A DNA stretch of 64,000 bases from an uncultured Bacilli bacterium (GTDB lineage Bacteria > Bacillota_I > Bacilli_A > RF39 > UBA660): positions 10,037 to 74,036 of the forward strand of contig CAKOPW010000003.1 of NCBI GenBank assembly GCA_934101115.1. The letters run 5' to 3'. A program made the position numbers and the translations under genes. The notes under the pieces are model-generated. The model made no database searches. It had not been told where the DNA came from and saw nothing but the letters and a program-made list of their open reading frames with translations. Positions 34,056-60,625 of this stretch are shown one piece after another (position 1 is the first letter of the stretch; every line of letters begins with the position of its first letter).

Positions 34056-34073
34056 GTGCCGAGGCAACGGCAC
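34056..34073. repeat. GC-rich hairpin at the extreme right end of ICE-1
   Basis: gtgccg aggcaa cggcac: a 6-bp GC-rich stem in very AT-rich DNA, 5 nt from the point where amidase homology stops. Confidence 0.6.
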
Positions 34074-34078
34074 ACAAG

Positions 34079-34316
34079 ACCTCCTGCATTTATGTGATTA
34101 GACACAACAATAACATTACTATCATTTCCAAAAGCATTCTTAATTCTATTGACTCTTTGAGTTGGACTCAATGTTTCATCTGTTTCCCTTGTAATATAAA
34201 CAGGAATCCCAAGTCTTTTTAACTCATCATACATTATTTTACTAATAGCTAAAGTCATATTTTTTTCAATTATATCATTTCCACTTGCACCGTTATCAGT
34301 ACCACCATGTGGAGGA
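34079..34316 (-). pseudogene. Internal fragment of an N-acetylmuramoyl-L-alanine amidase (Amidase_3) gene
   Basis: The minus strand reads ...PPHGGTDNGASGNDIIEKNMTLAISKIMYDELKRLGIPVYITRETDETLSPTQRVNRIKNAFGNDSNVIVVSNHINAGG, then unrelated LVCRCLGT*. It has neither a start nor a C-terminal half. Confidence 0.8.
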
Positions 34317-34335
34317 ATCGGAAAAATCCAAATAA
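34290..34335. other. Left junction (hybrid att site) of ICE-2
   Basis: Plus strand: taccacca TG tggaggaatcggaaaaatcc. The element-side arm is the inverted counterpart of 60571-60590. Confidence 0.7.
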
Positions 34336-34347
34336 ATTTAAAATTAA

Positions 34348-35952
34348 TTAAAAATCAAAATTCCATTGTATTTCTATACTTCTTGTTTTAGTTTCCTTAT
34401 TGTATTCTCCAATATAAATCTTATCAATAAATTCATCAACTACTACTTTATTTAATTCTTTAATATGTTTATATTTCTTTAAAAGATCATCCGCTTGCTT
34501 TTTTTCTTCTTTAACATTTTCTAAAGAAGTTAATTCATTTTCTATTATTTTTATTCTTTTAGTCATAGCTTCAATCTCTCTTAAATAATCACTAGACATC
34601 ATTGCAAACATATCACTAGTAATAACTCCTTTAACTTTATCTTCATAAAGATTTCGATAATAATCTCTATTATCATCAATTTTTCTGATAAGACTATTTT
34701 TTTCTTTTTCTAAAGTCTTTATTGCATTTTGATTATCCGAACTTCCCATTCTACTTTTTTCGTATAACTCTTTCAAGTTATTTTTATCATAATATTTTTC
34801 TAGTAAATCATTGATAGCGTTAAGTAATATTTTTTCTAACTCATCCATTCTAATTGCCTTATTATTTGTACATATACCAAATTTTTTATTTCCTTTACAT
34901 TGCATATATGCTCGTTTGCCGGTTTCTTCACTTTTAACTTTAAAAACGTTTCTCATAAAAGTTTTTCCACAACAGCTGCAATAAACTTTTCTAGTCAAAT
35001 AATGTACTTCACCAGTTTTAATAGGTTTATTATGTGTTCCTAATATCATTTGCACTTTATTCCATGTTTCTAAATCTATAATTGGTTCGTGTGAATTTAA
35101 AGTTCTAATCCACTCCTTTTCAGGTACTTTTTTAGGTTTATGATTTTTATAACTTACAAAAGTTGTTCTTCCTTGAACTAAATTACCAATATATACCTCG
35201 TTTTTTAACATTTGAGCAATTGTATCAGGTCTCCATTTAACTGTTTTTAAATCACATGTAGAACATACAAATTTACTACCCTTTTGTTTTTTATAAAGAG
35301 CTCTTGATGGAATATTATTATTATTTAGATACTCGCAAATTCTATAATAGCCATAACCATTTGCATACATTTCAAATATTTTTTTCACTACTTTAGATGC
35401 CACTGGATCTATAATCAACTTATGTCCATCTTCACTTCTATCATATCCGTAAGAAGCAAAACTTCCCATAAATAATCCATCTTCTCTTTTATTTTTTAAA
35501 GATTTTTTAATATTTTGTGACAAATCATCCAGATACCATTCATTAATAAGACCATTTATCTGGCGAGATTTTTTATTTGATTCAATACTTGTATCAGCAT
35601 TATCAACAATACTTACAAATCTAACTCCCCACTCTATAAACTTATTGTGCAAATATCTTTCGATAACTTCCATATCCCTTGAAAACCTTGATTGTGATTT
35701 ACATAAAACTAAATTAATTTTGCCGCTTTCACAATCTTTTATCAATCTTTCAAAATCCGGTCTATAAGTTCCTGCTCCCGAAAAATCATCATCAGAATAA
35801 ATATCAACAACATTCCACCCATTTTGGATAGCATATTTTAAACACATACTTCTTTGATTAACTATACTATTACTATCATCATCTTTATTTAATTTGTCTC
35901 TGTCTTCATCAGATAATCTACAATAAACACCTACCTTTTCTAACATAGCCAT
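34348..35952 (-). CDS. Large serine recombinase
   Basis: 534 aa. VGVYCRLSDEDRD (catalytic Ser region), a recombinase domain, a Zn ribbon (CSCCGKTF...C...C) and a C-terminal coiled coil. Confidence 0.9.
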   Translation of the reverse strand: MAMLEKVGVYCRLSDEDRDKLNKDDDSNSIVNQRSMCLKYAIQNGWNVVDIYSDDDFSGAGTYRPDFERLIKDCESGKINLVLCKSQSRFSRDMEVIERYLHNKFIEWGVRFVSIVDNADTSIESNKKSRQINGLINEWYLDDLSQNIKKSLKNKREDGLFMGSFASYGYDRSEDGHKLIIDPVASKVVKKIFEMYANGYGYYRICEYLNNNNIPSRALYKKQKGSKFVCSTCDLKTVKWRPDTIAQMLKNEVYIGNLVQGRTTFVSYKNHKPKKVPEKEWIRTLNSHEPIIDLETWNKVQMILGTHNKPIKTGEVHYLTRKVYCSCCGKTFMRNVFKVKSEETGKRAYMQCKGNKKFGICTNNKAIRMDELEKILLNAINDLLEKYYDKNNLKELYEKSRMGSSDNQNAIKTLEKEKNSLIRKIDDNRDYYRNLYEDKVKGVITSDMFAMMSSDYLREIEAMTKRIKIIENELTSLENVKEEKKQADDLLKKYKHIKELNKVVVDEFIDKIYIGEYNKETKTRSIEIQWNFDF

Positions 35953-36016
35953 TCCTCCAATATTTTGGAATAACTAAAAATGCTAAATTGCAATACACTT
36001 TTATTATAAATCATTT

Positions 36017-36154
36017 TTAAGAATTATTTAATCTAAAATTTTCAGTTTCTAATTTTAAAATAATATTTAACAATTTTTTGTTAAGCAAATCTTTCAATTC
36101 TTTCTCAGATATTGATTCATTATTTTTAAATTTGTATTTTACATTATAAGTCAT
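36017..36154 (-). CDS. Possible small ORF (45 aa) upstream of the recombinase
   Basis: Read from the sequence as MTYNVKYKFKNNESISEKELKDLLNKKLLNIILKLETENFRLNNS*, with a weak RBS. It is the only candidate ORF in a 500-bp gap. Confidence 0.2.
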   Translation of the reverse strand: MTYNVKYKFKNNESISEKELKDLLNKKLLNIILKLETENFRLNNS

Positions 36155-36450
36155 TCCAAAAATTTTTTCCTTTCTCTTTTAGTTTTTAAATAAGATTTTA
36201 CACAATAAAAAATTCTTATCTTCTTAGCTTATAGATTTGCAACAATATAATTAATTTTTAATAAAGGTAATAAATAAGAAAAAGACATTTACTTTATTTA
36301 CAATATAATAAGAATCTTATGATAAGTTTATACGTAGCAGTTATTATTTGATATGCATAACCTATCAATAAATAATATTCTTGAATTCATAATAAATTTA
36401 CAAATCAATTTGATAATATTTTCTATTGTTATCAAAACAGCAAATATTGC

Positions 36451-38445
36451 TTAAAGATTTTTATTTAGTAAACTTAACATTTCTGTCAAACCCTTTACAT
36501 GAATATTAAAAATTGTTTTATCAGCTTTTGATAAATCCTCGATATGAAAGTATTCTTGATCTATACAACTGTTTACTTTTAACCATATCTCATTTGTTTT
36601 TTCTCTATTAATAGTTACTTGAACATAAGCAGTATCATTTTTTCTTAAAAACTCCACCTCATACGTAATGTCTTTAAAAACTTCATTTAACTTTTCTATA
36701 ATCGTATTAAATATTTCTTTTTCGGATTCATTTGATTTTTTATAAAAATTTTGATTTCCTTTTGAATTTTCAAAAAAGTCTAGGTCGGTTTCATAATCAA
36801 AGTTGATTTGCTCCACCGTAAAATATGTATTATCAAGCTGTTTCAATGGTTGAACTTTTCTATCAATTTCACCTTTTTCATAACAAGAAAATTTGTTATA
36901 CATAACTGTATCTCTAAAAATTGGATAACCAACTATAGGAAAAATAATGGTCTTATAGTGAAGTTGTTTTACTTCATCTGCTGTAAGTAAATCCCTTGAT
37001 ATTAAAGAAGTAGATTTATTTCCGTTATAATTCATTAAACTCATTGATTGACTAATGGAATTACTTTCTATCGTTTTCTTACCTAATCTTTTTGAAATTG
37101 CTTCAGCTGTATCTTGTGTATTAGTTTTTAAGTAAACAAGCCCACAATTATCTAATATTATTTGTGCAACTTCTTTGCCATAAACATTGTCAAGCTGAGA
37201 AAAAGATTGAATAAAAAAATGAAACCTCATACCTCTACTCCTAGCCACTGAAACAATTGCTTCAATATCTGCTAGTGGTGGACAGTTAGCAAATTCATCT
37301 AATATCCAATCAATTTGAACTGGTATTTTTTTACTATCTTGCAAATTAGCAAGTTTTACCAATTCTTTATATAAAAGTCCTACTATAATCGTAACTAAAG
37401 TAAAATAAACTTTATCTTCGTCTGGTACTATAATAAATAATGCTGTTGCTTCTCTACCTAATAAATCAAAGTCAAAGTCAGAGTCAGATGTTACATTTGC
37501 TACATTGATGTCATCAAATAAAGCCATTTTCTCAGCAAATACTGCTGTTATCGACTTATAAGTATTTTCGGATGTACTTAATATCGAAGTTAAAGAATCT
37601 TTACTCTTATTTCCATATTCTTTCTTTTCAATGTATATTTTGAACTTATTAAAATTCTTTTCTTGCATTGAACTATTTTGAAACTTACGAATAGAAGTCA
37701 TTGTAATTTGATTCCTTTTAATATTCCCATTCTTATACTCTTCCAAAAAAAATCCTATTAAGCCTTCTAATAAATTTCTTGCACTATTATTCCAAAATGG
37801 ATCTTTTTGTTGGACCTTTTCTTGCATTATCATTGTAGCAAGTGAAGTTATTAATCTGTTAGTTTCAGCAAGTGAAGTCATTGCCAAATTATTATATTTA
37901 ACTTTATCTTTTTTACTTATAATTGACTTTTTTTCATATTCAATATACATTTCATATTCCTTAATAATTGGTTCTAATATATTAAAATGATTAGACTTCT
38001 CTGGATGTCTAAAATCAAGTGTTAATACATTATATCCATTGTCTTTAAACATTTTTGAAGTTGTATTAAAAATTTCACCTTTTGGATCAGTGATAAAAAC
38101 ACTCCTTTTATTCTTTGCAGTAGCAATAAATGAACACATTGGAATAACCGCAGTAACTGATTTACCACTACCAGTTGATCCTAGATAAGTGTAATGTGGC
38201 GTTTCCCTATCAAACCAAACATATTTATAATTTTTACTAAACCATATTGGTACACCAGATTCTTTAATGTTACTAATTTTTTCTTTATCAAAGTTTTTCT
38301 TAATTTCCTTAGCACTTGAAAATCGTGCTGAACCGTATTCATTACTATTTTTTATTTTATGTTTTGATATTAATGGTTCAATATAAATAAAAACTATCAT
38401 TATTACTAAAGTTATGATTAAAATTAATATATATGTTGTTCTCAT
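36451..38445 (-). CDS. Type IV coupling protein (VirD4/TraG family) with a C-terminal extension
   Basis: 664 aa. N-terminal TM, Walker A LGSTGSGKSVTAVIP and Walker B ILDEFANC. Confidence 0.8.
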   Translation of the reverse strand: MRTTYILILIITLVIMIVFIYIEPLISKHKIKNSNEYGSARFSSAKEIKKNFDKEKISNIKESGVPIWFSKNYKYVWFDRETPHYTYLGSTGSGKSVTAVIPMCSFIATAKNKRSVFITDPKGEIFNTTSKMFKDNGYNVLTLDFRHPEKSNHFNILEPIIKEYEMYIEYEKKSIISKKDKVKYNNLAMTSLAETNRLITSLATMIMQEKVQQKDPFWNNSARNLLEGLIGFFLEEYKNGNIKRNQITMTSIRKFQNSSMQEKNFNKFKIYIEKKEYGNKSKDSLTSILSTSENTYKSITAVFAEKMALFDDINVANVTSDSDFDFDLLGREATALFIIVPDEDKVYFTLVTIIVGLLYKELVKLANLQDSKKIPVQIDWILDEFANCPPLADIEAIVSVARSRGMRFHFFIQSFSQLDNVYGKEVAQIILDNCGLVYLKTNTQDTAEAISKRLGKKTIESNSISQSMSLMNYNGNKSTSLISRDLLTADEVKQLHYKTIIFPIVGYPIFRDTVMYNKFSCYEKGEIDRKVQPLKQLDNTYFTVEQINFDYETDLDFFENSKGNQNFYKKSNESEKEIFNTIIEKLNEVFKDITYEVEFLRKNDTAYVQVTINREKTNEIWLKVNSCIDQEYFHIEDLSKADKTIFNIHVKGLTEMLSLLNKNL

Positions 38446-38454
38446 TTTACCTCC

Positions 38455-38478
38455 AAAAAAAAAGACTCATCGAGTCTT
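38455..38478 (-). terminator. Rho-independent terminator abutting the T4CP RBS
   Basis: Minus-strand RNA: AAGACUC GAU GAGUCUU followed by U9, then immediately ggaggtaaaATG. The 25-nt core is identical to 54268-54290. Confidence 0.6.
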
Positions 38479-38632
38479 ATATCAAATTACTATAAATCAG
38501 ATTCATAACTTTTATTTTCGTTATTAGATAATTTCTTGATTTGTTTTTGCATTTGTATTTTTCTATTTAATTTTCGTTGATAAGTTTTTCGGAAGAATCT
38601 CTATAAGCCACTTTTAAAACATATTTAATATT

Positions 38633-39121
38633 TTATTGGGCATTTATATCTTCTAAATACAATTCACCAGATTTATAATATATATATTTATACAAACATA
38701 TATCATAATTTATTTTATCAACAGCATATTTATCATAGTTATTATAATCTTGTGCAACTAAAATCATTTTAGGACTATCCCAGCTAATCTTTGTATTTAC
38801 TCCTAATTTTCTTTTAGCTGCAATTTCAAAGTCTGCTTTATGATTAACGAGCCAATTCATATAAAACGATATTTGGCTTATCATTACTTTGCTTTTATCA
38901 TACTTATATTCGATAATAACTGGATTACCTTCAAAATCTAATGCAATGGTATCTAAACGACCATTATAATCATCAATCAATGGAAATTCAGTATCTACAA
39001 ATTTAACCTGCAATAACTCTTCAAGATTGCTTTCAAATAAATGCTGTAATTCGCTTTCGTTATTAAATTGTTCAGTTTCTTCTCTAATAATCTTGTTATC
39101 CTTTATTTTAAATAATGACAT
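38633..39121 (-). CDS. PD-(D/E)xK-type nuclease-like protein (NucS/DUF91-like)
   Basis: 162 aa; ...GRLDTIALDFEGNPVIIEYKYDK... (D...ExK arrangement). Confidence 0.35.
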   Translation of the reverse strand: MSLFKIKDNKIIREETEQFNNESELQHLFESNLEELLQVKFVDTEFPLIDDYNGRLDTIALDFEGNPVIIEYKYDKSKVMISQISFYMNWLVNHKADFEIAAKRKLGVNTKISWDSPKMILVAQDYNNYDKYAVDKINYDICLYKYIYYKSGELYLEDINAQ

Positions 39122-39210
39122 AGCTACACCTCTATTTCATTATATCAAAAAATAAATTTATTTTCAGTTTTCTTTTTTGACTGTTAGAGTATTAAAATAA
39201 TAAATTTAAT

Positions 39211-40527
39211 CTATTTTTCGTATTCATCATTTTTAAACAATTTACTAAATTCTTCTGATGCTTCTTCCATCTCGTAATTAATATTTCTTATAGATTTACA
39301 AATTTCTTGTTTATTTTGAAATTTGTTTGAACTTAGATAATTTCTGACAATATCTCTTTTTGTCATAGACTTATTTTTTTTATAATTAATTAAAATTATC
39401 TCCTTCATTATATCTTCTTCAGTTCCTTTCAATTTTTTATATTTATAAATGTTATTAGAATAATTTACCAAATAGTTATAAATATAGTTATTTAAATATT
39501 CTTGTTTATTTTTAATAATGGTATAATCAATTTCTTTATCTTTTATGTTATTAGATTTTCCAGTTTCATATAAATAATTTCTTAATTTATCTACAGATAT
39601 GTCAAAACTCGCTTTTAAACTTTTAAATTCTGAATCGTTATTATACAAATACCTATATATACTTTTTGTGAGACTGCGTATTTTATTATCATCTATAGAA
39701 TTAAATTTAATTCGATTATTACTATTATTTTGTACATACAATAATTTTCCTAGTTGAAGAATATTTTCTTCTAAAATTAAATCTTCGTGTTTCTTTAATA
39801 GCATATTTTTATTGTCTCTGCTAAAATATTTTTTAAATTCTTCTATGTCAATATTGATATTTTTTAACATTGGACTAAAGTTTTTTTCTCTTTCTATAGA
39901 AATTGCAATTAAATTTTTAAGATAATTATAATCACTTTTTTTTAATTTTCCTAATCTCCTGTATGCTAAAAAGCCATTTTTGTTTATTGTATTAGGCTCT
40001 TTTTCCATAAATGCAATATGGAAATGATAGTTATCAGTATTTGCATGAAGAGATATTTGATACATCATTTTATCTAAATCTTTAAATTCAAGTTTTTTTA
40101 AAAATCTAGGTATAACCTCTTTTATCATTTTTTGTTCTAAATCTTTTAATGATATATTTTTGTCGATATAGTCATTATCAAACGAAACAACTAATTTCCA
40201 TAGATTTGAATTATAGATTTGATTTCCAATAAATTCTTTTCTTTTCATTAATTCTTTATTTGTAGCATAAGATCCATTTTCAATTATTAAATTTACTTTA
40301 TTGTGCTTGTTTATTTTACCAGTAAAATAGTCAACCAAATTTATAGCAATCTTTTTTTCATTTGCAAAATACTCTAACATTTTTTTACTATACTTAACTT
40401 TACTTTCTTTAGATGATTCGTCATACCTACAATCTCTATTATTCAATGCTAATTGAAATCTACCTCTAACGAAAATATTATTTTTCTTATCAATCATCCA
40501 TTTTCCTTTCTTTATATAAACTTTCAA
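39211..40527 (-). CDS. Putative relaxase of ICE-2
   Basis: 438 aa. ISLHANTDNYHFHIAFMEK parallels the HxDx..HxH motif of the ICE-1 relaxase (HLNTKHFHNHFIV). It lies downstream of the oriT-like site. Confidence 0.55.
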   Translation of the reverse strand: MKVYIKKGKWMIDKKNNIFVRGRFQLALNNRDCRYDESSKESKVKYSKKMLEYFANEKKIAINLVDYFTGKINKHNKVNLIIENGSYATNKELMKRKEFIGNQIYNSNLWKLVVSFDNDYIDKNISLKDLEQKMIKEVIPRFLKKLEFKDLDKMMYQISLHANTDNYHFHIAFMEKEPNTINKNGFLAYRRLGKLKKSDYNYLKNLIAISIEREKNFSPMLKNINIDIEEFKKYFSRDNKNMLLKKHEDLILEENILQLGKLLYVQNNSNNRIKFNSIDDNKIRSLTKSIYRYLYNNDSEFKSLKASFDISVDKLRNYLYETGKSNNIKDKEIDYTIIKNKQEYLNNYIYNYLVNYSNNIYKYKKLKGTEEDIMKEIILINYKKNKSMTKRDIVRNYLSSNKFQNKQEICKSIRNINYEMEEASEEFSKLFKNDEYEK

Positions 40528-40804
40528 ACTTTTTTAAATTTTTGGAATTTTTTATATCATTAAAAGGTAAATTTAGATCAGAATAAATTTGCTTAAGTAA
40601 CGATTTTATATATAAGACATTCCACTTACAATCATTAACACTTTTACTAATTTCTTTAACGTAGTTGTCTTTTTCATTCAAACTTAATCCAATATTGCAT
40701 AACCTATCTACTGCTTTAGAAAATGTTAAGTGATTTATTTCCGCGTAGAGTAATATAGAATTTAATAATTCATATTCAAAATACACTTTTTTATCTTTTT
40801 TCAT
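40490..40804 (-). CDS. Hypothetical protein (possible relaxosome accessory)
   Basis: 104-aa ORF overlapping both neighbours. Confidence 0.4.
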   Translation of the reverse strand: MKKDKKVYFEYELLNSILLYAEINHLTFSKAVDRLCNIGLSLNEKDNYVKEISKSVNDCKWNVLYIKSLLKQIYSDLNLPFNDIKNSKNLKKFESLYKERKMDD

Positions 40805-41192
40805 TATCTAACATAGCCCTTACTTCAGAGTATATACGTGTTTTTAAGTCTTTTGTAGATTCACGATTTGTTTCTATATTTTTAACCGGTATTATGTTTA
40901 ACATTTCGTAATCTTTAGAATATAAAAAATACTCTTTTCCATACCGAAAAAAGATATTTCTCCAAGCTAGAATCCTTTTTTGAGGAAGATTTGGATTCAT
41001 TATTTGTAAAGGAAACCCTGCAATATAAAACAAGCTTCGAGCCGAAACTTCTGGATATAAATTTTTGGCTAAGACACACCATAGTTTAAAAATTGGATCG
41101 TATTCGATAAAACGATTATATTTTATATCTAAGACAAAAGGATTTTGTTTAAGTAAAATTATTTCTTGTTCAGTATAAATTTTAGATTTCAT
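40791..41192 (-). CDS. Hypothetical protein
   Basis: 133-aa ORF in the same operon. Confidence 0.45.
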   Translation of the reverse strand: MKSKIYTEQEIILLKQNPFVLDIKYNRFIEYDPIFKLWCVLAKNLYPEVSARSLFYIAGFPLQIMNPNLPQKRILAWRNIFFRYGKEYFLYSKDYEMLNIIPVKNIETNRESTKDLKTRIYSEVRAMLDNEKR

Positions 41193-41251
41193 AATAAAAA
41201 TTTCCTTTCATAATTTTATCTCTATTTAAGTTTTGTAAACATTTATTAAAT

Positions 41252-41386
41252 TCAAATTTTTTCAATATTGAGATTCTCCATTCTACAATAGCCAATTTGT
41301 AAAAGTTCAATCATTAAGTCATTTAGTGACCTATATCCTAATTCTTGTTTCATCAATATCAATTTAGAGTGCATATAGTCACTCAT
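41252..41386 (-). CDS. Possible small ribbon-helix-helix protein
   Basis: Read from the sequence as (IKIRTTIR)MSDYMHSKLILMKQELGYRSLNDLMIELLQIGYCRMENLNIEKI*. It has a beta-strand-then-helices pattern like CopG/Arc, with AAAGGAG upstream. The exact start is unclear. Confidence 0.3.
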   Translation of the reverse strand: MSDYMHSKLILMKQELGYRSLNDLMIELLQIGYCRMENLNIEKI

Positions 41387-41457
41387 TCTAATAGTTGTTC
41401 TTATTTTAATCACTCCTTTTATTTTATTTTTTTATTAAATCGTCGATTTAATTCTAA

Positions 41458-41522
41458 CAGGATAAGATAATGACACCATAATAGCCTACAAACCCTTTCT
41501 TTGTAATACTTTTTATGGTGTC
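41458..41522 (-). promoter_or_regulatory. Candidate oriT of ICE-2
   Basis: The minus strand reads TGACACCATAA (30 nt) TTATGGTGTCA ttatctt ATCCTG T. This is an 11-bp perfect inverted repeat, then 7 nt, then the MOBP-type nick consensus YATCCTG/Y. Confidence 0.55.
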
Positions 41523-41665
41523 AAACTTATTTTGCACTTGCAAAATGGGTACTTTTTTGTTTTTATTAGAACCATGAAAGCACAAACACGCATTAATTGC
41601 CGTACTTAGATAGTTCCCAAAAATATCCCCAACTAGTTATTTTTTCTTAAGAATTATAAAATACT

Positions 41666-42514
41666 CTAATTATTAAAATCTATTAAGCTCATTCCATCTA
41701 CTAATAAACCATCATTATTTTGAACTTGAAAATGTAAATGCGGACCTGTAGAATAACCTGTAGTACCGACCTCAGCTAATTGTTTTCCTTGTTGAATTAT
41801 ATCTCCTACTTTTATTTTTGCACTGCTAGGATACAAATGCGCATACGTAACATAGTATTTTACTTCATCTAAAGAATCACATTCAATCCTGATAAAGTTA
41901 CCTAATCCTCCCGATTTATCAATTTTATTTTCTAAGTAATTAAATGACACTTGATTTACTTTACCATCACAAACAGATAAAACTGGTGTTTTATTTTGTG
42001 CAGCAAAATCCCAAGCATTATGAATATCATTTTTAGAATAAATAATTCGTTCTTGTTTAAAATAACTTGTTATGCTTGATTTAGAAAAATCGAGCGGCAT
42101 CGAAAACGGTTTGTTTTGTATTTCATTAACTTGAGTTGAATCCTTAATTGAATCTGCAGAGCATACTTCCATATATTTATATTTATTTTTTATGCAAACA
42201 TCACTTATTGGAAGAACCTGTTTACTTTCTAAATTCAAATTATCAGAATAAATTTCATCAAAAGTTAAAGAATCATCTTCTAAATAGAAATATAAAATCC
42301 GTGATAATGATACATATCCACTTTTTTCTCTTATATTTTTATTAACAACAGAAAGATATTTAGCAGAATAGTCAGCATTGTTTTCAACATAATTGTCTGT
42401 AATATTAGCTCCAAAAAAATCTAATAGCATTAAACAAGAAACTAATATACTAACAAACAAAGCAGTTGAAATTATGGAAGAACCCAATATTATTTTTTTT
42501 ATTTTATTTCTCAT
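41666..42514 (-). CDS. M23/LytM-family peptidoglycan endopeptidase (membrane anchored)
   Basis: 282 aa. N-terminal TM, then ...HNAWDF...GTTGYSTGPHLHFQV.... Confidence 0.8.
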   Translation of the reverse strand: MRNKIKKIILGSSIISTALFVSILVSCLMLLDFFGANITDNYVENNADYSAKYLSVVNKNIREKSGYVSLSRILYFYLEDDSLTFDEIYSDNLNLESKQVLPISDVCIKNKYKYMEVCSADSIKDSTQVNEIQNKPFSMPLDFSKSSITSYFKQERIIYSKNDIHNAWDFAAQNKTPVLSVCDGKVNQVSFNYLENKIDKSGGLGNFIRIECDSLDEVKYYVTYAHLYPSSAKIKVGDIIQQGKQLAEVGTTGYSTGPHLHFQVQNNDGLLVDGMSLIDFNN

Positions 42515-43286
42515 TATCTAATTTTAAATCCTGAAATTTATTTTTTGCAAATTTATTTAAAGATTCAATTAGTCTTATTCCATTTTGATAATTTCTTTTT
42601 GTAATGGGCTCGCTTAGATCTCCGTGTCTAGCGATTTCACCTAGATTGACACTAATTATATCTACTAAATTTGTTATCCCTTTTTTTGATGATAATAATT
42701 TGTCAAAATTGAAATATGCATCTTCTTTTGATTCATATGAATTATAAAACTTATCATAATCTTCTTCCAATTCACACTTTATTATTTCTTTTATTAAACT
42801 ATCCTTTTTCTTATCAATTGGATAGATCTTTCCCATCACTAACAATTTATCAAATAATGATTCAAATTTAATGTCCGATGAGTTATTTAGTAATTCAGAA
42901 TAAAACCATCGTTGACTATTTTCATCATATAAATATGCAATTTCTTCACAAGACTTTAAAAAGTACTTTTTGTATTCATTAATATTTTTAAACGTCTTCT
43001 TACTACATATCTTTTCATCTTCATTTCTATCCCTATGATAAGCAACAGTAATTTCTTGTTGTCTATTTTCATAATCAAAATTATGTGTAAAATCTGGCTC
43101 AGGATTTACTCTTCTACCCAAAAATGAAATATCTCCCAGATTAATTAAATTATTTATTTTTCTAATATCTCTGTAAAAATAATTTAATAGTACTCCATTT
43201 TGATATAAATATCCGTTAGAATAACAATATATAGAATCAATTGTTCCGTTTTTTCTTAGTACTGCAATATTGCTTTTTTTACTCAT
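42504..43286 (-). CDS. Hypothetical protein
   Basis: 260-aa ORF between VirB4 and the M23 peptidase. Confidence 0.5.
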   Translation of the reverse strand: MSKKSNIAVLRKNGTIDSIYCYSNGYLYQNGVLLNYFYRDIRKINNLINLGDISFLGRRVNPEPDFTHNFDYENRQQEITVAYHRDRNEDEKICSKKTFKNINEYKKYFLKSCEEIAYLYDENSQRWFYSELLNNSSDIKFESLFDKLLVMGKIYPIDKKKDSLIKEIIKCELEEDYDKFYNSYESKEDAYFNFDKLLSSKKGITNLVDIISVNLGEIARHGDLSEPITKRNYQNGIRLIESLNKFAKNKFQDLKLDNEK

Positions 43287-43294
43287 GATACCTC

Positions 43295-45751
43295 CTATTT
43301 CTCGTTCATCATTTTACGTTCAAGTTCTGTTGCACGTATCCATATTCTTAACCTATTTTTAAAATCAATATTCAACAAAAATTCTCCACGTCTAGCCGAT
43401 AAAAGGAAGGATTTTTGAGTGTCTGTTAATGGATTTTGCTTAAATAATTCTAGATAGGCAATTAAATCGTCTTCTTTTAACATACCAATCATTTGATATT
43501 GACAATTATTAAATATTGCTGTTGCATGTCTCAAAATTTCATTTGACCCTACAAAATCTTTTACAGATTGAGTAGCAACAACTAATGAACCAGAGTATTT
43601 CCTGATCCTTCTTGCTAATTGTCCAAAATTTCTTAAGACTTCAAAGTTATTTTCATCAATAAATAAATGAAACTCATCAGCCACAACCATTATGTGTTTT
43701 TTATCACTAATATTAACTTTATCATTTAAAATTTTATTTGCAACTATAGTATTGTTTAAATACGTTAATAAATTAAGAGTTTGCGTATTTATTAATCTTT
43801 GATTACCACTATAAAGTAATTCTTGTAAATTAAATCCTATTAAGTCATTGTTTAAATTGATATTCGTATATCCATTAAATAAAAATGAATCTGTTCCTGT
43901 TAAAAATCTTGATAATAGTATTTCTAATTGATCTATTATTTTTTTCTTTTCATTACTCTTTAAATTACTTTTATATTCAGGAAGATAATTATATAAATCC
44001 GAAAAAATTGGATAATCCTCTGCTTTTAACTTTTCTAAAGCCTCTATGGATGTATTTCTATCAATTCCTTTTTTATTATATAAACTTTCAACAATATTCA
44101 GCAGCATAACTAGTTCTTTTTCAGTTATATTCTCAAAAGCTGATTTGAAAAAAGCTTCTAAAAAGCCTAAATGTTTCGCTAGTGTACAATCACTTTCTCT
44201 TATATCTCTATCTTCATCTGAAGGAATGTATCTTATCTGAAGTGGATTTATTATTCCACCTTTTGCTGAATATAAATCAATGTATGATCCTCCAATATTT
44301 TTGATAAAGTTATATTCATTTTCAGCATCAAAAATGAATATCTTAGTATTTCTAGCGTATTCATTTATTATCATTTTTTTTAAAGTGTATGACTTTCCTC
44401 CTCCGGTAGAACTAATAATTGCCATATTATGGCTTGTTCTTAAATTGTTTAGAGCATATATATCAAAAAAAATTGGTAATGATGAATGTATATCAAGACC
44501 AAGCATATATCCATTATAATCATTAAAATAAGACTCAGTAAAAGGAAACCCTGCACTAAGTGTTAAAGAAGGCAAATAAATTGAATAGTCGGATAATGAT
44601 TTCATTGTTATATCATATGTTTGCCAAGTTTCCATTTGTCGCAATTTGGGTACATCGATTTTTATTTGGTATAAATCTGCAATGCGTTTTAGTTCTCTAA
44701 TTGTATTTTCCCTATTTTTTTTGTCACCTTCAACTAGAAAAATTAAAGATACCTCTTTTATTTTTTCATCGCCGTTTTTTATTTCATTCATTAATGCTTG
44801 AAAATTTTCTTGCTTTCTATCCAATTCTGTAGCATCACTTAATTTTTTTGTAGTGTTTATATCACTTAATAAAAATTGATATTGACTATTTAACCATCGT
44901 ACCAACTCTTCTTGTGAAATTGTATCTTTTATAGAAAGTGACACCCTAACATTAGGAACATTAAATAACTCTTCAAAAAATAACTCTGAAACAAAAAAAG
45001 GTATACTTTTAATAGTAAGTAATTGAAATTCCTTATCATCAAATCTTATTGAATTAGCTCTTTCTAATACATTCATTGGACATAGTAAATTAGGTAAATC
45101 ACTCATAATTAATTCGTCTAAAGTATTACTAGTTAAGTATAAATTTGATAAAAATTTATAAATTTCTAACTTATTATCAATTATGTTTATATTTATTCTT
45201 GGGACTATATTACTAGTTATTTCCTCAATTTCGTCTAAAACTTTTTCTAGTTCTTCTACAGTCTTAGATATAATAACTAAATAATAAACACTCGATATTG
45301 TGTAACCATTTTTTTCTAAGTCTTCTATTAAACCTAAGTTATCCATTAATAAATTTGATTTAATTTCATTATTTACCACATTTTCTAACTTTTTATTTAA
45401 ATTAATTTTATTATTGTTTAAATTAATTTTTTGATCCAACTTATAACATTTGAGATTTAGTCCTCTTATTTGATATAAGCTTTTTAAAGCAACAAAAAAA
45501 TTATTTTTTTCTTGCTTACTTGCTAAAGATAAATCAACTGCTTCTATTTCTAATAATGTAGCAACTTCCCCAGTTTTTAATCGAATTAATCCAGTATCTT
45601 CAACTTTTTTTATATTTGATATTGATTGAGAGTTTTTTACTCTTTTTTTCATATTTTTTCTTTCTTTATATTTGTTATATTTTTTTTCGCATTCTTTCTC
45701 AATAAAATCATATTCTTCTTTTATTTGTTTTTGTTTTTTCAATTTCTTCAC
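43295..45751 (-). CDS. virB4: VirB4/TcpF-like conjugation ATPase
   Basis: 818 aa. Walker A ISSTGGGKSYTLKKM and Walker B MVVADEFHLFID. Confidence 0.8.
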   Translation of the reverse strand: MKKLKKQKQIKEEYDFIEKECEKKYNKYKERKNMKKRVKNSQSISNIKKVEDTGLIRLKTGEVATLLEIEAVDLSLASKQEKNNFFVALKSLYQIRGLNLKCYKLDQKINLNNNKINLNKKLENVVNNEIKSNLLMDNLGLIEDLEKNGYTISSVYYLVIISKTVEELEKVLDEIEEITSNIVPRININIIDNKLEIYKFLSNLYLTSNTLDELIMSDLPNLLCPMNVLERANSIRFDDKEFQLLTIKSIPFFVSELFFEELFNVPNVRVSLSIKDTISQEELVRWLNSQYQFLLSDINTTKKLSDATELDRKQENFQALMNEIKNGDEKIKEVSLIFLVEGDKKNRENTIRELKRIADLYQIKIDVPKLRQMETWQTYDITMKSLSDYSIYLPSLTLSAGFPFTESYFNDYNGYMLGLDIHSSLPIFFDIYALNNLRTSHNMAIISSTGGGKSYTLKKMIINEYARNTKIFIFDAENEYNFIKNIGGSYIDLYSAKGGIINPLQIRYIPSDEDRDIRESDCTLAKHLGFLEAFFKSAFENITEKELVMLLNIVESLYNKKGIDRNTSIEALEKLKAEDYPIFSDLYNYLPEYKSNLKSNEKKKIIDQLEILLSRFLTGTDSFLFNGYTNINLNNDLIGFNLQELLYSGNQRLINTQTLNLLTYLNNTIVANKILNDKVNISDKKHIMVVADEFHLFIDENNFEVLRNFGQLARRIRKYSGSLVVATQSVKDFVGSNEILRHATAIFNNCQYQMIGMLKEDDLIAYLELFKQNPLTDTQKSFLLSARRGEFLLNIDFKNRLRIWIRATELERKMMNEK

Positions 45752-45758
45752 TTCCTTT

Positions 45759-46025
45759 TCATTTTTTTAAAATGTATTCTTTGCACCTAAACATGTAAGA
45801 AAATACTAAAATAAAAACTTTATACATTCTATTTTTTTTTGATAAGCTTATAGGTAACATCATAAATGCTGTAATTGAAAATAGTACAAGAGATAATATT
45901 CTTGTTTTATTTATAGAAAACAAGATTAAAAATAATATAAACAATGGCAAACCGATAAATAAATCTGTCAATTCAATATATTTTCCTAAAGTCTTTTTCA
46001 AACTTTTAACTGTTATGTACATCAA
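45759..46025 (-). CDS. PrgI/TcpE-like small membrane protein
   Basis: 88 aa with two TM segments, directly upstream of VirB4. Confidence 0.4.
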   Translation of the reverse strand: MMYITVKSLKKTLGKYIELTDLFIGLPLFILFLILFSINKTRILSLVLFSITAFMMLPISLSKKNRMYKVFILVFSYMFRCKEYILKK

Positions 46026-55575: not shown

Positions 55576-55896
55576 CTAAAAATTCTAATTTTTTGTTCGC
55601 TGGCTTTAGATAAATATGCAATGACGTAAAACTAAAAACGTTCTATAACCAACTTACTTCATTAAGTAATATGATTATCAAGCATTATTTTTCGTAAATA
55701 CGTCAAATATTGTAATATTTTATCTTAGTCTTGTCAACTTTTCAAAAATTGGATTTGTTTCCAAATACGTCCAATTTACTCCATTTTAACATGTCTATAG
55801 AGATACACAAGAATATTATGGATATACCTTGGATATATTTTGGCTATGTTTTGGCAAACTTTTTTTATTAAAAATCTATACTTCCTAACATAATTC

Positions 55897-55934
55897 AAAA
55901 AAAAAGTATAACAATTCATTAATAATTGTTATAC
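55897..55934 (-). terminator. Rho-independent terminator after the anti-sigma gene
   Basis: Perfect 11-bp stem gtataacaatt / aattgttatac with a 7-nt loop, followed by U9 on the minus-strand RNA. Confidence 0.7.
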
Positions 55935-55971
55935 CATTCATAAACACCACTTATTTATCAATTTTTGCTAC

Positions 55972-56814
55972 TTAATAGTGAAATCCATCTAATATTTTTT
56001 GAACAGTCCCAAAAGGATCATTCGCATCTTCAGTTCCTATGTGCACTTTCAATCTATAAGCTATATTATCGTGTATTATAATAATATTTTGAGTTGATTT
56101 AGGAGAAACATATGTTGCATAGGCTTTCTCGTTAATAGCTTTAATATAATATTCGTGAATATTATTTTCGGATGATACGTTTGCTTCCCAAACAGTATCA
56201 ATATTTTTATCATTATATTTTGTTCGCATTGCAACATCTAGCCATACTGCTGTTTGATTTCTTACGCCAAATTTGGTGTTCATTGGATTCGGCATATGTA
56301 ATTTTATATATGAGATATTTCCATCAACACGAGAAACTTTAGTTAAGAGCATTCTATTATCTGTAAAGAAGTCATTTTTTAATATTTTTATTCCTAAGAC
56401 ATCTGCTAATTCTTCAGGAGTATATGCAGAATAGCATGCATCATCATCACTTATATTTTCAAATAAATTGAAAGATCTTTGACATCTAGGTTCATTTAAA
56501 TTAGCATTATAGTTAAGTTCCTTTCTTGCCTCTGACTCTAATTTATAATTTGTGTAATAAGAATCATTTTGAGTCTTTAAATTGGTTATTTTAGTTATAA
56601 CTTTACTAATACCATCTTTGATTTCTTCTGCATAAGTTACTCCTGCACTAACAATCAAAATACTAAATGCTGCAACTAAACAAAATATAATACTATTTTT
56701 TTTCTTATTTTTATAATATCTATTGATAGTTTGTATTTTTAGGTATTTATTTCTTTCATCAGTCAAAATTATCTTATCAATGTTGTCAATGTAATCATTC
56801 TCGATTTTACTCAT
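55972..56814 (-). CDS. Putative membrane anti-sigma factor
   Basis: 280 aa with one TM (IIFCLVAAFSILIVSAGV) and an extracytoplasmic domain. Its start overlaps the ECF sigma stop (ATGA). Confidence 0.5.
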   Translation of the reverse strand: MSKIENDYIDNIDKIILTDERNKYLKIQTINRYYKNKKKNSIIFCLVAAFSILIVSAGVTYAEEIKDGISKVITKITNLKTQNDSYYTNYKLESEARKELNYNANLNEPRCQRSFNLFENISDDDACYSAYTPEELADVLGIKILKNDFFTDNRMLLTKVSRVDGNISYIKLHMPNPMNTKFGVRNQTAVWLDVAMRTKYNDKNIDTVWEANVSSENNIHEYYIKAINEKAYATYVSPKSTQNIIIIHDNIAYRLKVHIGTEDANDPFGTVQKILDGFHY

Positions 56815-57275
56815 TGAAATCCCTCCATTTCCAATCGTAACTTATCTTTTCCTCTTGATAAATTCATTTTAATAGCTGATTCAGTTTTCCTTGTAATTGC
56901 AGCTATCTCCTTTATTTTATATCCCTGATAATAATATAAATATAATGCAATTCTATAATCTTTTGGAATACTTTTTAACAAATCAAAAGTTTCATTTGTA
57001 TTTAAATCATAAAATCCAGTTTCACTATCTGGCATAGAAATATGTTTTTTCCAAGGTGATTTTAATAAATCTTTGGCATTATTTATACTTACTTTTATTA
57101 ACCATTTTTTTACGTCCTCATTTGGAAGAGACAATATTTTCTTATTTTTGTATAGCTTCATAAAAGTTTTTTGAAGAATATCTTCAGCATCAGGAATATT
57201 CAAAATATAACTATAAATTAATTTATAAATATCTCTACTATATAAACTATAGATTTCATCAAAACGCTCATTCAT
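56811..57275 (-). CDS. ECF-type RNA polymerase sigma factor
   Basis: Region 2 DAEDILQKTFMKLYKN and region 4 YYQGYKIKEIAAITRKTESAIKMNLSRGKDKL. RBS aaaggag precedes ATG 57275. Confidence 0.8.
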   Translation of the reverse strand: MNERFDEIYSLYSRDIYKLIYSYILNIPDAEDILQKTFMKLYKNKKILSLPNEDVKKWLIKVSINNAKDLLKSPWKKHISMPDSETGFYDLNTNETFDLLKSIPKDYRIALYLYYYQGYKIKEIAAITRKTESAIKMNLSRGKDKLRLEMEGFQ

Positions 57276-57377
57276 ATTTACTCCTTTCACTATAATAACG
57301 ATTGAAAATGCAGAAAAGTCACTAAAAATTTTAAAAAAAAAGGAATCAAAGTTGATTGATTCCTACACTTTGGTTTA

Positions 57378-58313
57378 TTAGAAGTTGGCTTGAACTCCTT
57401 GCATTCCATCATAATAGTTTCGTACAGTGCTATTACTAAAATATACTACATTTCCAAGGCCACCTGATTTAAAAGTATATGACTTTGCTTGACTTAAAGT
57501 AATATTACTATTACGTGCGTGTTGATAAGTAGCATACATTGGATTACCAACAGGATTAACAAGATTTAACTCTAATTCTAATGTCAACTCTGAATTTGCT
57601 TTATCAAAAATATTCATAATTTGTCCAAAACCTTTATCAGTAATCTTTATGTTATTACTAGAAAGATCGTATTCGGCAGACAACTTATCTCCATTTTTGT
57701 CATAACATGTTTGTACCCCTGAATAGCTAGATATATTTGAAGTTGGCATAGAATTATCCCAACGAACTGCTAATATATCATATTTTTTTATCATTGGTAT
57801 ACTAAACCATTCAACATCCATAAGAACTATAGGATTGTCGTCCCAAACATATTGTCCATAAACAAAAGATAATCTTTTACTAGAAGTAGTATAACTAACT
57901 TCGGGACCTCCCTCAGGCATCCAATATGGTATAATCATTTTTGATACATCATGTAATTTGTTATCGGAAAGCACGTGTAATTTATCATTTGTTACTACAC
58001 TCATAGCTTCCTCTTCTGTTGCTGGTATTGTAATTGAATCAATAACTTCACCATTTTTTACCATTTCAGTAGTTATCGCGTATTCTGTACCTGTTTTAAC
58101 AACTGAATTTTCATCTGAAAATAACAAAACCGCATTTTGACTCATATTATCAATAGTTCGGTCACTAAATCTTTTTGTTAAATTTTCATATTGTTTAGAA
58201 GTAATTTTTACTTCTCTAGAATTTACATATTCTCCATTTTTATTTAACTCAAGTGCATTTACTGAGCTAATAGTAAAAAATAAACATCCAATAAATAATA
58301 ATCCTTTTTTCAT
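57378..58313 (-). CDS. Secreted protein of unknown function (paralogue A)
   Basis: 311 aa with a signal peptide. C-terminus ...ATYQHARNS...SYTFKSGGLGNVVYF...YYDGMQGVQANF is shared with 58444..59166. Confidence 0.55.
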   Translation of the reverse strand: MKKGLLFIGCLFFTISSVNALELNKNGEYVNSREVKITSKQYENLTKRFSDRTIDNMSQNAVLLFSDENSVVKTGTEYAITTEMVKNGEVIDSITIPATEEEAMSVVTNDKLHVLSDNKLHDVSKMIIPYWMPEGGPEVSYTTSSKRLSFVYGQYVWDDNPIVLMDVEWFSIPMIKKYDILAVRWDNSMPTSNISSYSGVQTCYDKNGDKLSAEYDLSSNNIKITDKGFGQIMNIFDKANSELTLELELNLVNPVGNPMYATYQHARNSNITLSQAKSYTFKSGGLGNVVYFSNSTVRNYYDGMQGVQANF

Positions 58314-58443
58314 AAATTTTTCCTCCTATCTTATTAAAAAGTCTTATTAATCTTTTCTATATATCACACTCCATTCCACAATTTAACACCCATGGATTTT
58401 GTTAAATTTATTTATACTAAATTCTAAAATTTAATATACTCAA

Positions 58444-59166
58444 TTAAGACATTTTTAATTCAACACCAACCATACAATCATAATAATCTTGAATTCCTGT
58501 ATTAAATTTGAAAACGCCACCTATACCAGATTTAGAAAATGAATACTTTTTGCTATTTGTTGATGAAATTGTTTTTTTAGCATGTTGATAACTAGCTTTA
58601 ATTGAACCTTTATTTTCCAACAATAATAGTTGAGAAACATCCAAATACGTTACATCAGTAGGAAGCTTAAAAGATGTTCCTATTCCAATATTCTCCTTTT
58701 TGTCATAAGAATACTCGCTTTTACCTTTATTAGTATCTACTCTCACCTTATTTACTTGAATAGGTGATGCACCATCTAAATAAATTCCAAGTATGTCATA
58801 GCTTCTTATTTTTGGTAAATTAATCCATCTAAGAGTAATAGACACTAAACAATTAGTGTTACATGACATGCTCATTTTTAAAGATTTATTAGCCGTTGTG
58901 TGCTCTGCTTCTGACAATAAACTATAATCAGAATTATTAACTAATGTTGTTTTAATTTCATTTTCAAATAATCCGTTTTTCTTTAAAAAATTGTATTCTT
59001 CTTGTGATAAATTATCTTGATAGCCATCCCAATAAAAGTCACTTATAGCACTGTATTCTTTTTGAGTGAGAATAACTCCATTACTATTTTCATAAAAGAT
59101 TCCCTGTGCATTTACTCCTCCAATAAAAACAAATGATAATAATATCAATAAAAAATTTTTTTTCAT
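58444..59166 (-). CDS. Secreted protein of unknown function (paralogue B)
   Basis: MKKNFLLILLSFVFIGGVNAQG signal peptide. ...WINLPKIRSYDILG... and ...ASYQHAKKT...KYSFSKSGIGGVFKF...YYDCMVGVELKMS. RBS gggaga precedes ATG 59166. Confidence 0.55.
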   Translation of the reverse strand: MKKNFLLILLSFVFIGGVNAQGIFYENSNGVILTQKEYSAISDFYWDGYQDNLSQEEYNFLKKNGLFENEIKTTLVNNSDYSLLSEAEHTTANKSLKMSMSCNTNCLVSITLRWINLPKIRSYDILGIYLDGASPIQVNKVRVDTNKGKSEYSYDKKENIGIGTSFKLPTDVTYLDVSQLLLLENKGSIKASYQHAKKTISSTNSKKYSFSKSGIGGVFKFNTGIQDYYDCMVGVELKMS

Positions 59167-59228
59167 ACATCTTCTCCCTTTTTCTGATTTCATGTTAGCA
59201 TATTTTTGTCAAAAAAAGGGAGGTCTTG

Positions 59229-60350
59229 TTAAGACCCTCCTCTAATTATCTCATTAAACACACTATTTAAAGTATCAACAACAATACTATCACAATTATT
59301 TTTTTGACTTTTATTTTTTTCATAATAGCAATCATCTAGTAGATTTAGCTCCATATCCATTTTATTATAACTTGCACTATCATACTTTACATCATATGTA
59401 ATCGAATAATTATATTTTTTATCCTTCCAATATATTAAAATTGATGCTGTCTCATCTGCATAATTTATATTATACAAATTACCTTTTATTTTAATTTTTT
59501 TAAAATAAAGCCTATTTTCTTCCTGAAAGTTCTTTTTTATAGCATTTATAACATCGTTGCTTATAATTTCTTTAGATTCAGATTTTTGAAGTTTAGTTTT
59601 TTTCGATTTAGAAAAAAATATTTTTTTATTAGAATAATCCTCTTTCAATATTAGCTGAATAGTCTTTACTTTATTGTCATAATATATATCCACAAAAAGT
59701 GAATCAAATTTTATATTTTTATTTTTAATTTCGAAATATTCATTGTAATCATAAAAATCTCTTATAAGAGCATCTTTTCCAGAAGAAGTCTTGTATATAA
59801 TTGATTTATTACCATTACCATAATATAAAATTACTTTTGATATCTTATTTTCATCAACACCATTAATATTTCCTAATCTAAAATAAATGCTCTCACCGGT
59901 CAGCATAACTGCACCATCCGTTAAATAAATATCATCTGGAGCAGACTCTATGGTATATATTTTTACTGAATCATAAGAGTTTAAAAAATAATAAAGCAAA
60001 AAAGAAATTATCATAATCAGTAATACTATTAAACTTACAACAAGAAACTTTGCTGTTTTATTATACTTTTTATTTATTAAATTTCTATCATCATATATCA
60101 TCAAATTAATATCCTGTAATTTTTTTTCATTCTCTTTAGACCTATATTCACCAAACATAATTTCATCAATTGAAACATTAAATATTTCACTAAGTCTAAT
60201 TATTGTCGAAGAATCCGGAATTGTCCTACCATTTTCCCACTTACTTATTGCTTCTCTATTAATTGGTATCTTTTCAGCCAAAATATTTTGACTCATATTA
60301 TTTTTTTGTCTAAGTTCTTTTATAAATAAACCAATTTTTTTACTATCCAT
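59229..60350 (-). CDS. Membrane-tethered XRE-family regulator
   Basis: MDSKKIGLFIKELRQKNNMSQNILAEKIPINREAISKWENGRTIPD, then one TM and a ~240-aa extracytoplasmic domain. Confidence 0.7.
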   Translation of the reverse strand: MDSKKIGLFIKELRQKNNMSQNILAEKIPINREAISKWENGRTIPDSSTIIRLSEIFNVSIDEIMFGEYRSKENEKKLQDINLMIYDDRNLINKKYNKTAKFLVVSLIVLLIMIISFLLYYFLNSYDSVKIYTIESAPDDIYLTDGAVMLTGESIYFRLGNINGVDENKISKVILYYGNGNKSIIYKTSSGKDALIRDFYDYNEYFEIKNKNIKFDSLFVDIYYDNKVKTIQLILKEDYSNKKIFFSKSKKTKLQKSESKEIISNDVINAIKKNFQEENRLYFKKIKIKGNLYNINYADETASILIYWKDKKYNYSITYDVKYDSASYNKMDMELNLLDDCYYEKNKSQKNNCDSIVVDTLNSVFNEIIRGGS

Positions 60351-60564
60351 AAGTTCACCACCAAATTTTAAAATCGTATTTAAATAAAATATTAACAAGC
60401 AAAGTAATAAAGAATATAAAAAATGAAATTAGCATTATGATAACTATAATGTACATAATTTTTTTTCATAAATAATCCCTATATTCATTATATCATGAAA
60501 AAAGATACTTTTTAATAAAGTACCTTAAATCCCTGTATTGCCTGCCTCTTTAGTTATTCACTTA

Positions 60565-60610
60565 TTTTTTGGATTTATCATGTTCCTCCATGTCCAGGGT
60601 CAATTATAAT
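60565..60610. other. Right junction (hybrid att site) of ICE-2
   Basis: Plus strand: ggatttatcatgttcctcca TG tccagggtcaattat. The element-side arm is the inverted counterpart of 34311-34337. Confidence 0.7.
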
Positions 60611-60625
60611 CTTATAATTATTCAT
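60578..60625 (-). pseudogene. 5' stub of the disrupted amidase gene
   Basis: AGGTGA RBS, then ATG AAT AAT TAT AAG ATT ATA ATT GAC CCT GGA CAT GGA GGA ACA TGA = MNNYKIIIDPGHGGT*. Sequence downstream of the TG at 60591-60592 (lower plus-strand coordinates) is element-derived. Confidence 0.75.

Follow-up and report, generated by a model that had tools for sequence, protein, structure and literature searches.

The stretch of DNA analysed here, called the window throughout, comprises 64,000 nucleotides of contig CAKOPW010000003.1 from an uncultured Bacilli bacterium and carries an integrative conjugative element (ICE), named ICE-2, that lies inside a gene for a cell-wall hydrolase of the Amidase_3-LysM type. 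We conclude with considerable confidence that a recombinase resembling TnpX and TndX inserted ICE-2 at the dinucleotide CA of one histidine codon of this gene, using a pseudo-palindromic attachment site of the element (attP), and that the chromosomal halves would be rejoined precisely at the same CA. The mechanism is one known for large serine recombinases (LSRs); what is new is the target, namely one codon of a catalytic motif used by a whole clade, and the existence of a hotspot with two insertion sites.

Insertion into the Amidase_3 gene

Read on the minus strand, the flanks of ICE-2 encode MNNYKIIIDPG|H|GGTDNGASGND...NHINAGG. The His of the GHGG motif and that of the H-x-N-A motif are presumably zinc ligands of Amidase_3 enzymes. 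The gene fragments and the two junctions (attL on the left and attR on the right) are located in the window as follows.

34079-34307, minus strand: middle part of the Amidase_3 gene (GGTDNGA...NHINAGG), homologous to intact genes as far as 34079/34080
34308-34309: crossover dinucleotide TG of attL, read as CA on the gene strand, where it forms bases 1 and 2 of the GHGG His codon
34310-34336: recombinase-proximal half-site of attP (P arm), with inner motif TGGAGGAA and outer motif AAAAATCCAAA; 21/27 symmetry, conserved in 28 close relatives
60564-60590: distal half-site of attP (P' arm)
60591-60592: crossover dinucleotide TG of attR
60593-60627, minus strand: 5' fragment of the Amidase_3 gene, codons 1-11 and the third base of the His codon (MNNYKIIIDPG-H)

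Counted with one copy of the core, ICE-2 spans positions 34310-60592, and a script check gave 26,283 bp as the distance between the repeats. An earlier note on this DNA had quoted both junction sequences as they are present in the window and had placed the right TG correctly at 60591-60592; its left TG, given as 34309-34310, is off by one, those positions reading GT, and its element length of 26,282 bp falls short by the same single base. The distance of 38 nt that it reported between the end of the recombinase gene and the junction is right, the stop codon and the core being separated by 34310-34347.

When the chromosomal halves are joined they encode, on the minus strand, the amidase start MNNYKIIIDPGHGGTDNGA, as had been proposed, and this start is uninterrupted in database proteins that are 95-99% identical and match Pfam Amidase_3. 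Among the loci that we fetched (designated L plus a number), 12 contigs of the same species have an empty ICE-2 site (L001-3, L084-90, L103 and L104). Disagreement between related empty sites and the predicted chromosomal site (attB) had been named beforehand as the observation that would speak against the proposal; all 12 align with it over 140 nt, with 2-4 substitutions, four being found in the more divergent L104.

The crossover point

On the gene strand attP reads ...TTTGGATTTTTCCGATTCCTCCA-CA-TGGAGGAACATGATAAATCCAAA..., a pseudo-palindrome of about 56 bp. As first described, its arms are perfect over 8 of 8 inner positions (TTCCTCCA / TGGAGGAA) and symmetric at 21 of 27 positions about TG. 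Two million random arm pairs drawn from the window matched on average at 8.2 of 27 positions, with a probability of about 1e-6 of reaching at least 21 of 27 and of about 8e-5 of a perfect match over the first 8.

The attL and attR of the window share 6 bp (CCATGT on the plus strand, ACATGG on the gene strand), and therefore the window alone does not single out TG: a crossover at another dinucleotide of the shared ACATGG block (AC, AT, TG or GG) could not be distinguished from it, and an unexpected A at position -1 of attR could even hint at a cut further left. We compared six elements for which both ends are in hand, namely ICE-2 and five small relatives of 8.9-11.3 kb that have both ends in one locus. 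The blocks shared by their attL and attR, given as bases to the left of the core, core, and bases to the right, are the following.

L015 (9 kb): 0 + CA + 0
L005: 1 + CA + 0 (ACA)
L041: 0 + CA + 8 (CATGGAGG)
L008: 2 + CA + 3
L039: 2 + CA + 6
window (ICE-2): 1 + CA + 3

No dinucleotide other than CA fits all six. The ends of L015 have only CA in common, L005 rules out everything to the right of it, and L041 together with L116-119, a 97%-identical variant of ICE-2, rules out everything to the left. The symmetry axis of attP bisects CA, the base at attR position -1 varies (T, G or A) among other elements and is hence chromosomal, and AT could not set orientation because it is palindromic. The core of ICE-2 itself is bounded on both sides, since the attL of L108 has a P arm identical to that of ICE-2 followed by CA-CGG (it reads CCA-CA-CGG) and the attR of L116-119 reads GGT-CA-TGGAGG. 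A crossover elsewhere in the shared block seems to us extremely improbable, and exchange at TG/CA is the position supported by the symmetry axis of attP together with the related elements. The resolution to the base pair that had been claimed from the window alone thus stands, although it is the relatives and the symmetry axis that provide it. In the paired elements, attP is symmetric at 16-21 of 27 positions versus 5-12 of 27 for attB.

In the L116-119 variant, attL and attR share 12 bp. Its P' arm (TGGAGGGACA...) and the chromosomal B' arm at the attL of L105, L107 and L110 (TGGAGGGACA...) have 10 bases in common after the core, for which coincidence, site choice or conversion between the repeats are all possible explanations.

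The same codon in many amidase genes

A recombinase scan of a genome collection yielded 80 loci, nearly all of them in metagenome-assembled genomes of gut origin that carry the label Bacilli, Mollicutes/Tenericutes or Mycoplasmatota. At 47 of these loci (recombinases 52-83% identical), an element arm, CA and (T/C)GGNGG are found downstream of the recombinase gene, followed by an Amidase_3 sequence starting from the GHGG His. The target amidases are diverse, ranging from LysM-type proteins of more than 300 aa to CwlD-like proteins of about 180 aa, and in two groups of loci (L046-L049; L007, L008, L014, L015, L018 and L021) identical arms lead into chromosomal sequences that differ from one another right after CA. 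Scanning metagenomes for the P arm plus CA added 12 junctions of the same pattern in 12 amidase genes, one of which lies in the gene known from the window, here from a different sample and 99.06% identical over 5.3 kb. About 60 related junctions lie at this same His codon (CA|Y) of GHGG.

Concerning the polarity of insertion, two loci (L038 and L064, at about 11600-11700) have a recombinase that is 69% identical, with conserved VirB4, type IV coupling protein (T4CP), M23 peptidase and relaxase, and an element whose orientation within the amidase His codon is reversed. Here the recombinase-proximal arm adjoins the 5' part of the amidase and the core is TG in element orientation; inverted insertions with an inverted core are what a polarity-setting core predicts.

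Recombinases with DUF4368, a domain that the ICE-2 recombinase also has, were described as a multi-targeting clade whose close relatives occur in many target-gene clusters (Durrant et al. 2022, PMC10083194). Unlike in relaxed multi-targeting, however, the targets of the ICE-2 clade all share GGN-CA-YGGNGG...GAYCC in Amidase_3 genes. The text and the available supplements of that study make no mention of amidase targets, and our literature searches turned up no account of serine recombinases that target amidase genes. Recombinases that are multi-targeting by gene-cluster counts can be strictly specific for the DNA of a conserved motif, a point of relevance to the choice of serine integrases for genome engineering.

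Relatives of the recombinase with 49-51% identity (L067-L069 and L071) are located in ABC-transporter ATPase genes, before ...VALIRTLA...LLLDEP, which represents another conserved-motif target.

Proposed recognition of the target site

In the model that we propose, the recombinase would have recombined attP with an attB inside the Amidase_3-LysM gene, the predicted partner being GACCCTGGNCAYGGTGGTACTGA. A 2-bp staggered cut would fall on CA (TG on the plus strand), that is on the first two His-codon bases in the zinc-binding D-P-G-H-G-G motif; TGGNGG, supplied by the His-Gly-Gly codons, would fit the inner half-site, while GATCC, supplied by the Asp-Pro codons, would fit the outer half-site motif 5 bp further inward, as in the published LSR attB model. 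The non-palindromic core would set the orientation of the insertion. Excision by the same recombinase would rejoin the halves exactly at CA, with ...GATTCCTCCA-CA-TGGAGGAACATGATAAATCC... as the predicted circle junction and ...GACCCTGGN-CA-TGGTGGTACTGA... as the predicted rejoined site. Since the bases recognised in this model are those of the H-G-G and D-P codons, one clade could enter many amidase genes at one codon, and recognition by the recombinase is probably dictated in large part by the Amidase_3 protein motif.

To describe the half-sites, consensus sequences were taken from the 28 closest elements. Outward from the core, the consensus P half-site is TggAGGAATCGGAAAAGTCCAAA and the consensus B' half-site is TGGTGGtActGATCCaGG. 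Over the inner ten positions, P and B' agree best at shift 0 (expected identity 0.53 versus 0.17-0.35 elsewhere), and the outer motif (positions 15-24) does so after B' is moved 5 bp inward (0.38 versus 0.11-0.28). A shift of the outer motif between attP and attB was proposed from the structure of an A118-family integrase (PMC3783163), and the 5-bp shift of the ICE-2 family agrees with that half-site model. About 60 independent attB variants and six paired attP/attB sets for one recombinase clade are enough for deriving recognition rules, and such a natural attB data set allows the published half-site model to be tested without a structure.

Gene content of ICE-2

The description of ICE-2 as an ICE with an LSR at its left end is borne out by the Pfam domains, the T4CP, VirB4 and the transfer genes. 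It is an integrative conjugative element of the typical Firmicutes type, and it resides in a low-GC, uncultured member of the gut Bacilli/Mycoplasmatota. A coupling protein and a VirB4 ATPase are both present, as in ICEs that rely on a type IV secretion system (T4SS). Reading ICE-2 as a prophage was considered and dropped: a megablast of the element against phage records gave no match and the gene content is conjugative, which is why we call it an ICE. The annotation is based on Pfam, and all annotated genes, including those listed here, are on the minus strand (ORF, open reading frame).

34348-35952: large serine recombinase of 534 aa, TnpX/TndX type with DUF4368 (Pfam, alignment to PDB)
36017-36154: conserved 45-aa ORF, recombinase partner and candidate accessory or directionality factor
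36451-38445: T4CP, VirD4/TraG-like (Pfam T4SS-DNA_transf, E = 2e-66)
39211-40527: relaxase-like protein with weak MobL and MobA/VirD2 matches
41666-42514: M23 peptidase, likely a cell-wall hydrolase of the transfer apparatus (Pfam)
43295-45751: VirB4-like T4SS ATPase (Pfam P-loop_TraG, DUF87)
47457-47738: T4SS pilin-like protein (Pfam)
47786-49051: two genes for single-stranded DNA-binding proteins (47786-48136 and 48653-49051), separated by a small ORF (Pfam)
49496-54185: surface module with a Listeria-Bacteroides-repeat protein, an S26 signal peptidase, a sortase and a thioester/SpaA adhesin (52329-54185)
56811-57290: sigma-70 family factor, similar to extracytoplasmic function factors (Pfam)
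59229-60350: XRE-type helix-turn-helix (HTH) regulator, 373 aa from the ATG at 60350, last gene before attR (Pfam)

An HTH_36 protein is also encoded in ICE-2. The start of the XRE regulator was picked from the sequence; public contigs contain exactly the product read from this ATG, and none on record has the product with a TTG start. None of the loci with a P0183-type regulator has it at an element end. Scans for promoters and terminators gave matches no more frequent than in shuffled sequences.

The recombinase and its small partner

By its domains and alignments, the recombinase is assigned to the LSRs of the TnpX/TndX subgroup. A Resolvase domain (E = 1.3e-23) is followed, C-terminal to the catalytic part, by Recombinase PF07508 (E = 2.4e-27) and Zn_ribbon_recom PF13408 (E = 5.6e-09), both above their cut-offs, and by a C-terminal DUF4368 (PF14287, 35.1 bits versus a cut-off of 25). 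The protein is about 31% identical over its full length to the products of annotated TndX genes. Its closest solved structures in PDB are the TnpX catalytic domain (2mhc) and the recombinase of a C. difficile conjugative transposon (3g13), and the alignment of its YCRLS motif to YCRVS of 3g13 gives Ser14 as the catalytic serine.

The same Resolvase, Recombinase, Zn-ribbon and DUF4368 domains occur in the recombinases of the clostridial elements Tn5397 (TndX) and Tn4451/Tn4453 (TnpX), TnpX being also the best PDB match; in these elements, as in ICE-2, the recombinase lies at the element end and crossover takes place at a 2-bp core. Tn4451 carries a Mob_Pre relaxase and so do small relatives of ICE-2 such as L008, which for this reason looks like a mobilizable element. 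The differences are also clear. The core dinucleotide of TndX and TnpX is reportedly GA, whereas CA is found at about 60 junctions of the ICE-2 family; the target of ICE-2 is one codon of a conserved protein motif, whereas TndX and TnpX use loosely defined sites; and ICE-2, unlike Tn5397 and Tn4451/Tn4453, has a conserved 45-aa partner ORF. The conjugation module of ICE-2 is unrelated to that of Tn916. With the phage serine integrases (A118/LI, phiC31, Bxb1, TP901-1 and SPbeta SprA) the ICE-2 recombinase shares the domain plan, and the two groups are also alike in having a pseudo-palindromic attP, a less symmetric attB, a central non-palindromic dinucleotide and an attB outer half-site motif located about 5 bp further inward. 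However, the ICE-2 family consists of ICEs or integrative mobilizable elements, not phages, and its recombinase has a DUF4368 tail.

The 45-aa ORF is found 54-83 nt upstream of the recombinase gene in 44 of the 80 loci, with 41-71% identity and usually a GTG start, and an identical copy is present on at least 87 public contigs. The pairing is independent of cargo, being observed in an ICE, in a mobilizable element and in a deletion derivative. ICEs, mobilizable elements and deletion derivatives of poorly known, uncultured gut Bacilli/Mycoplasmatota have one common integration module. Pfam gave no match at E <= 10 for 14 homologues, and the AlphaFold model shows an extended N-terminus and a single long helix (residues 17-44) with a mean predicted local distance difference test score of 78.6. 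Small phage directionality factors are comparable in size. As judged from its conservation, the ORF is a partner of the recombinase and a credible candidate for an accessory factor. It should be noted, however, that TnpX and TndX, the closest characterised recombinases, are on their own sufficient for integration and excision, according to the accounts of Lyras 2004 and Wang & Mullany 2000 as cited in PMC3783163, so that a directionality factor is not a given for ICE-2.

Evidence against the model and signs of mobility

Four observations weigh against the insertion model. All 12 empty sites carry one and the same substitution at the core-adjacent position -1, where they have GGT versus GGA in the attR of the window (the A of CCTGGA, at position 60595); the change is synonymous. 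Since the base at -1 varies among T, G and A at the attR of other elements, it belongs to the chromosome and is most simply explained as a strain polymorphism; the A may also make a better-fitting site, attP also having A there. No empty site with the GGA allele was found. Secondly, the signal for the 5-bp shift is modest (0.38 versus 0.11-0.28 at other shifts). Thirdly, the relaxase candidate scores below the cut-offs, with 22.8 bits against 28.5 for MobL and 20.9 bits for Relaxase; genes identical to it in L106 and L108 have precomputed MobL matches. Finally, the attP junction expected for an excised circle had no match in metagenome_contigs or viral_contigs.

This last result would also be expected if ICE-2 were a fixed remnant that no longer moves, its attachment sites being historical scars, and the target gene is already dead through the second insertion described below, so that there would be no selection for precise excision. 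Nevertheless, the backbone ORFs are all intact, the recombinase is full length and has its catalytic serine, and the 45-aa ORF recurs unchanged on its many public contigs (at least 87). The same P arm adjoins three different B' alleles, and near-identical copies of ICE-2 are present in several samples, among them the one with 99.06% identity. Two independent contigs (L113 and L114) stop exactly where junction forms diverge, at ...CCTCCACATGG (last bases ...TTCTGATTCCTCCACATGG), as expected for several junction forms per sample; these contig ends suggest that more than one form exists in those samples. There is also a derivative (L105, L107, L111 and L112) that has the identical 45-aa ORF and recombinase, with the pair of a sigma-factor gene and a 280-aa gene directly upstream, and that lacks the whole transfer module (window about 36.4-55.9 kb). 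We consider a fixed remnant unlikely. Intact genes, near-identical copies, three B' alleles, the derivative and the contig stops are indirect signs that ICE-2, inserted at the His codon as proposed, may have been mobile recently.

A second insertion site in the amidase gene

The earlier note had expected excision to rebuild the start of an Amidase_3 enzyme, and so it would, but not the whole gene. Rejoining at CA would restore the N-terminus MNNYKIIIDPGHGGTDNGA, but after NHINAGG the frame would run into a stop at about 34052 and the gene would remain truncated, owing to a second element that has entered it at about 34079. No amidase C-terminus (DGAEV..., LysM repeats) was found in the window by tblastn, and excision of ICE-2 alone would not restore amidase function in the window strain.

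This second integration site lies just after NHINAGG(G), at window 34052-34080. At least five unrelated element ends adjoin the amidase here, within about 12 bp of that motif, in the fetched loci (L001, L006, L008, L012, L035, L043, L054, L056, L065, L084, L088 and L109). The site is filled in L084 by a 9.5-kb element that encodes a 551-aa serine recombinase of its own, with the LysM C-terminus on the far side, while in L106-L108, which carry ICE-2, the second site is empty and the remainder of the amidase is 311 aa long. From the unrelated ends at the second site, and from the ICE-2 carriers in which this site is empty, it follows that one amidase gene of uncultured gut Bacilli/Mycoplasmatota is a two-site hotspot for mobile DNA. 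Insertions after NHINAGG also account for the abundance of database 'amidases' of about 98 aa.

Two insertions at conserved motifs of a coding sequence call to mind the skin element in sigK and SPbeta in spsM, which likewise have a serine recombinase, interrupt a coding sequence and give back the reading frame when excised precisely. The insertions in the amidase gene might then be reversible gene switches, with regulated excision of both elements rebuilding the amidase. Precise excision would indeed restore the frame, the second-site element of L084 has its own recombinase with the LysM C-terminus beyond, and the second site is occupied in every empty ICE-2 site examined. Unlike skin and SPbeta, however, the occupants here are conjugative or mobilizable, vary between strains and use two sites in one gene. 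The second-site occupants differ so widely between strains that they resemble opportunistic landings rather than a fixed developmental element, the second site is empty in some ICE-2 carriers (L106-L108), and the same recombinase clade enters many amidase paralogues. A regulated switch is thus very unlikely in our opinion. As a broader speculation, which we put forward with little confidence, the Amidase_3 gene might be more than a passive landing pad: several unrelated serine-recombinase elements would have converged on codons by the zinc-ligand motifs (GHGG and H-x-N-A-G-G), reversible interruption of a cell-wall hydrolase would be a genetic switch from which either the host or the elements benefit, and the multi-targeting DUF4368 recombinases would be predictable readers of protein-motif codons.

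Neighbouring features

Upstream of the amidase gene, the amidase promoter is separated from an HTH gene by 2.1 kb of DNA (window 60699-62794) that holds genes for a flavodoxin and an aldo/keto reductase as well as a 140-aa ORF. This DNA is missing from L084, in which the promoter and the HTH gene adjoin.

Directly to the left of ICE-2, at window about 7100-34078, there is a second conjugative element, ICE-1, whose integrase and left end are outside the window. Three of its genes are placed as follows.

8776-11112: VirB4
18473-20305: T4CP
21182-22351: relaxase

The other genes of ICE-1 code for ArdC-like, SIR2 plus Macro, sortase, thioester adhesin, ParA/ParB, metallophosphoesterase and HipA-like kinase proteins. 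An ORF of 534 aa at 7169-8773 had been suspected of being a second recombinase and was discarded, as it is unrelated to the recombinase. The hairpin at the right end of ICE-1, GTGCCGTTGCCTCGGCAC, is present in none of the fetched loci.

Finally, positions 46-6438 of the window hold a type I restriction-modification locus with the layout of a phase-variable specificity shufflon, made up of the C-terminus of hsdR, two partial hsdS genes on the plus strand, a tyrosine recombinase (2348-3283) and hsdS/hsdM on the minus strand.

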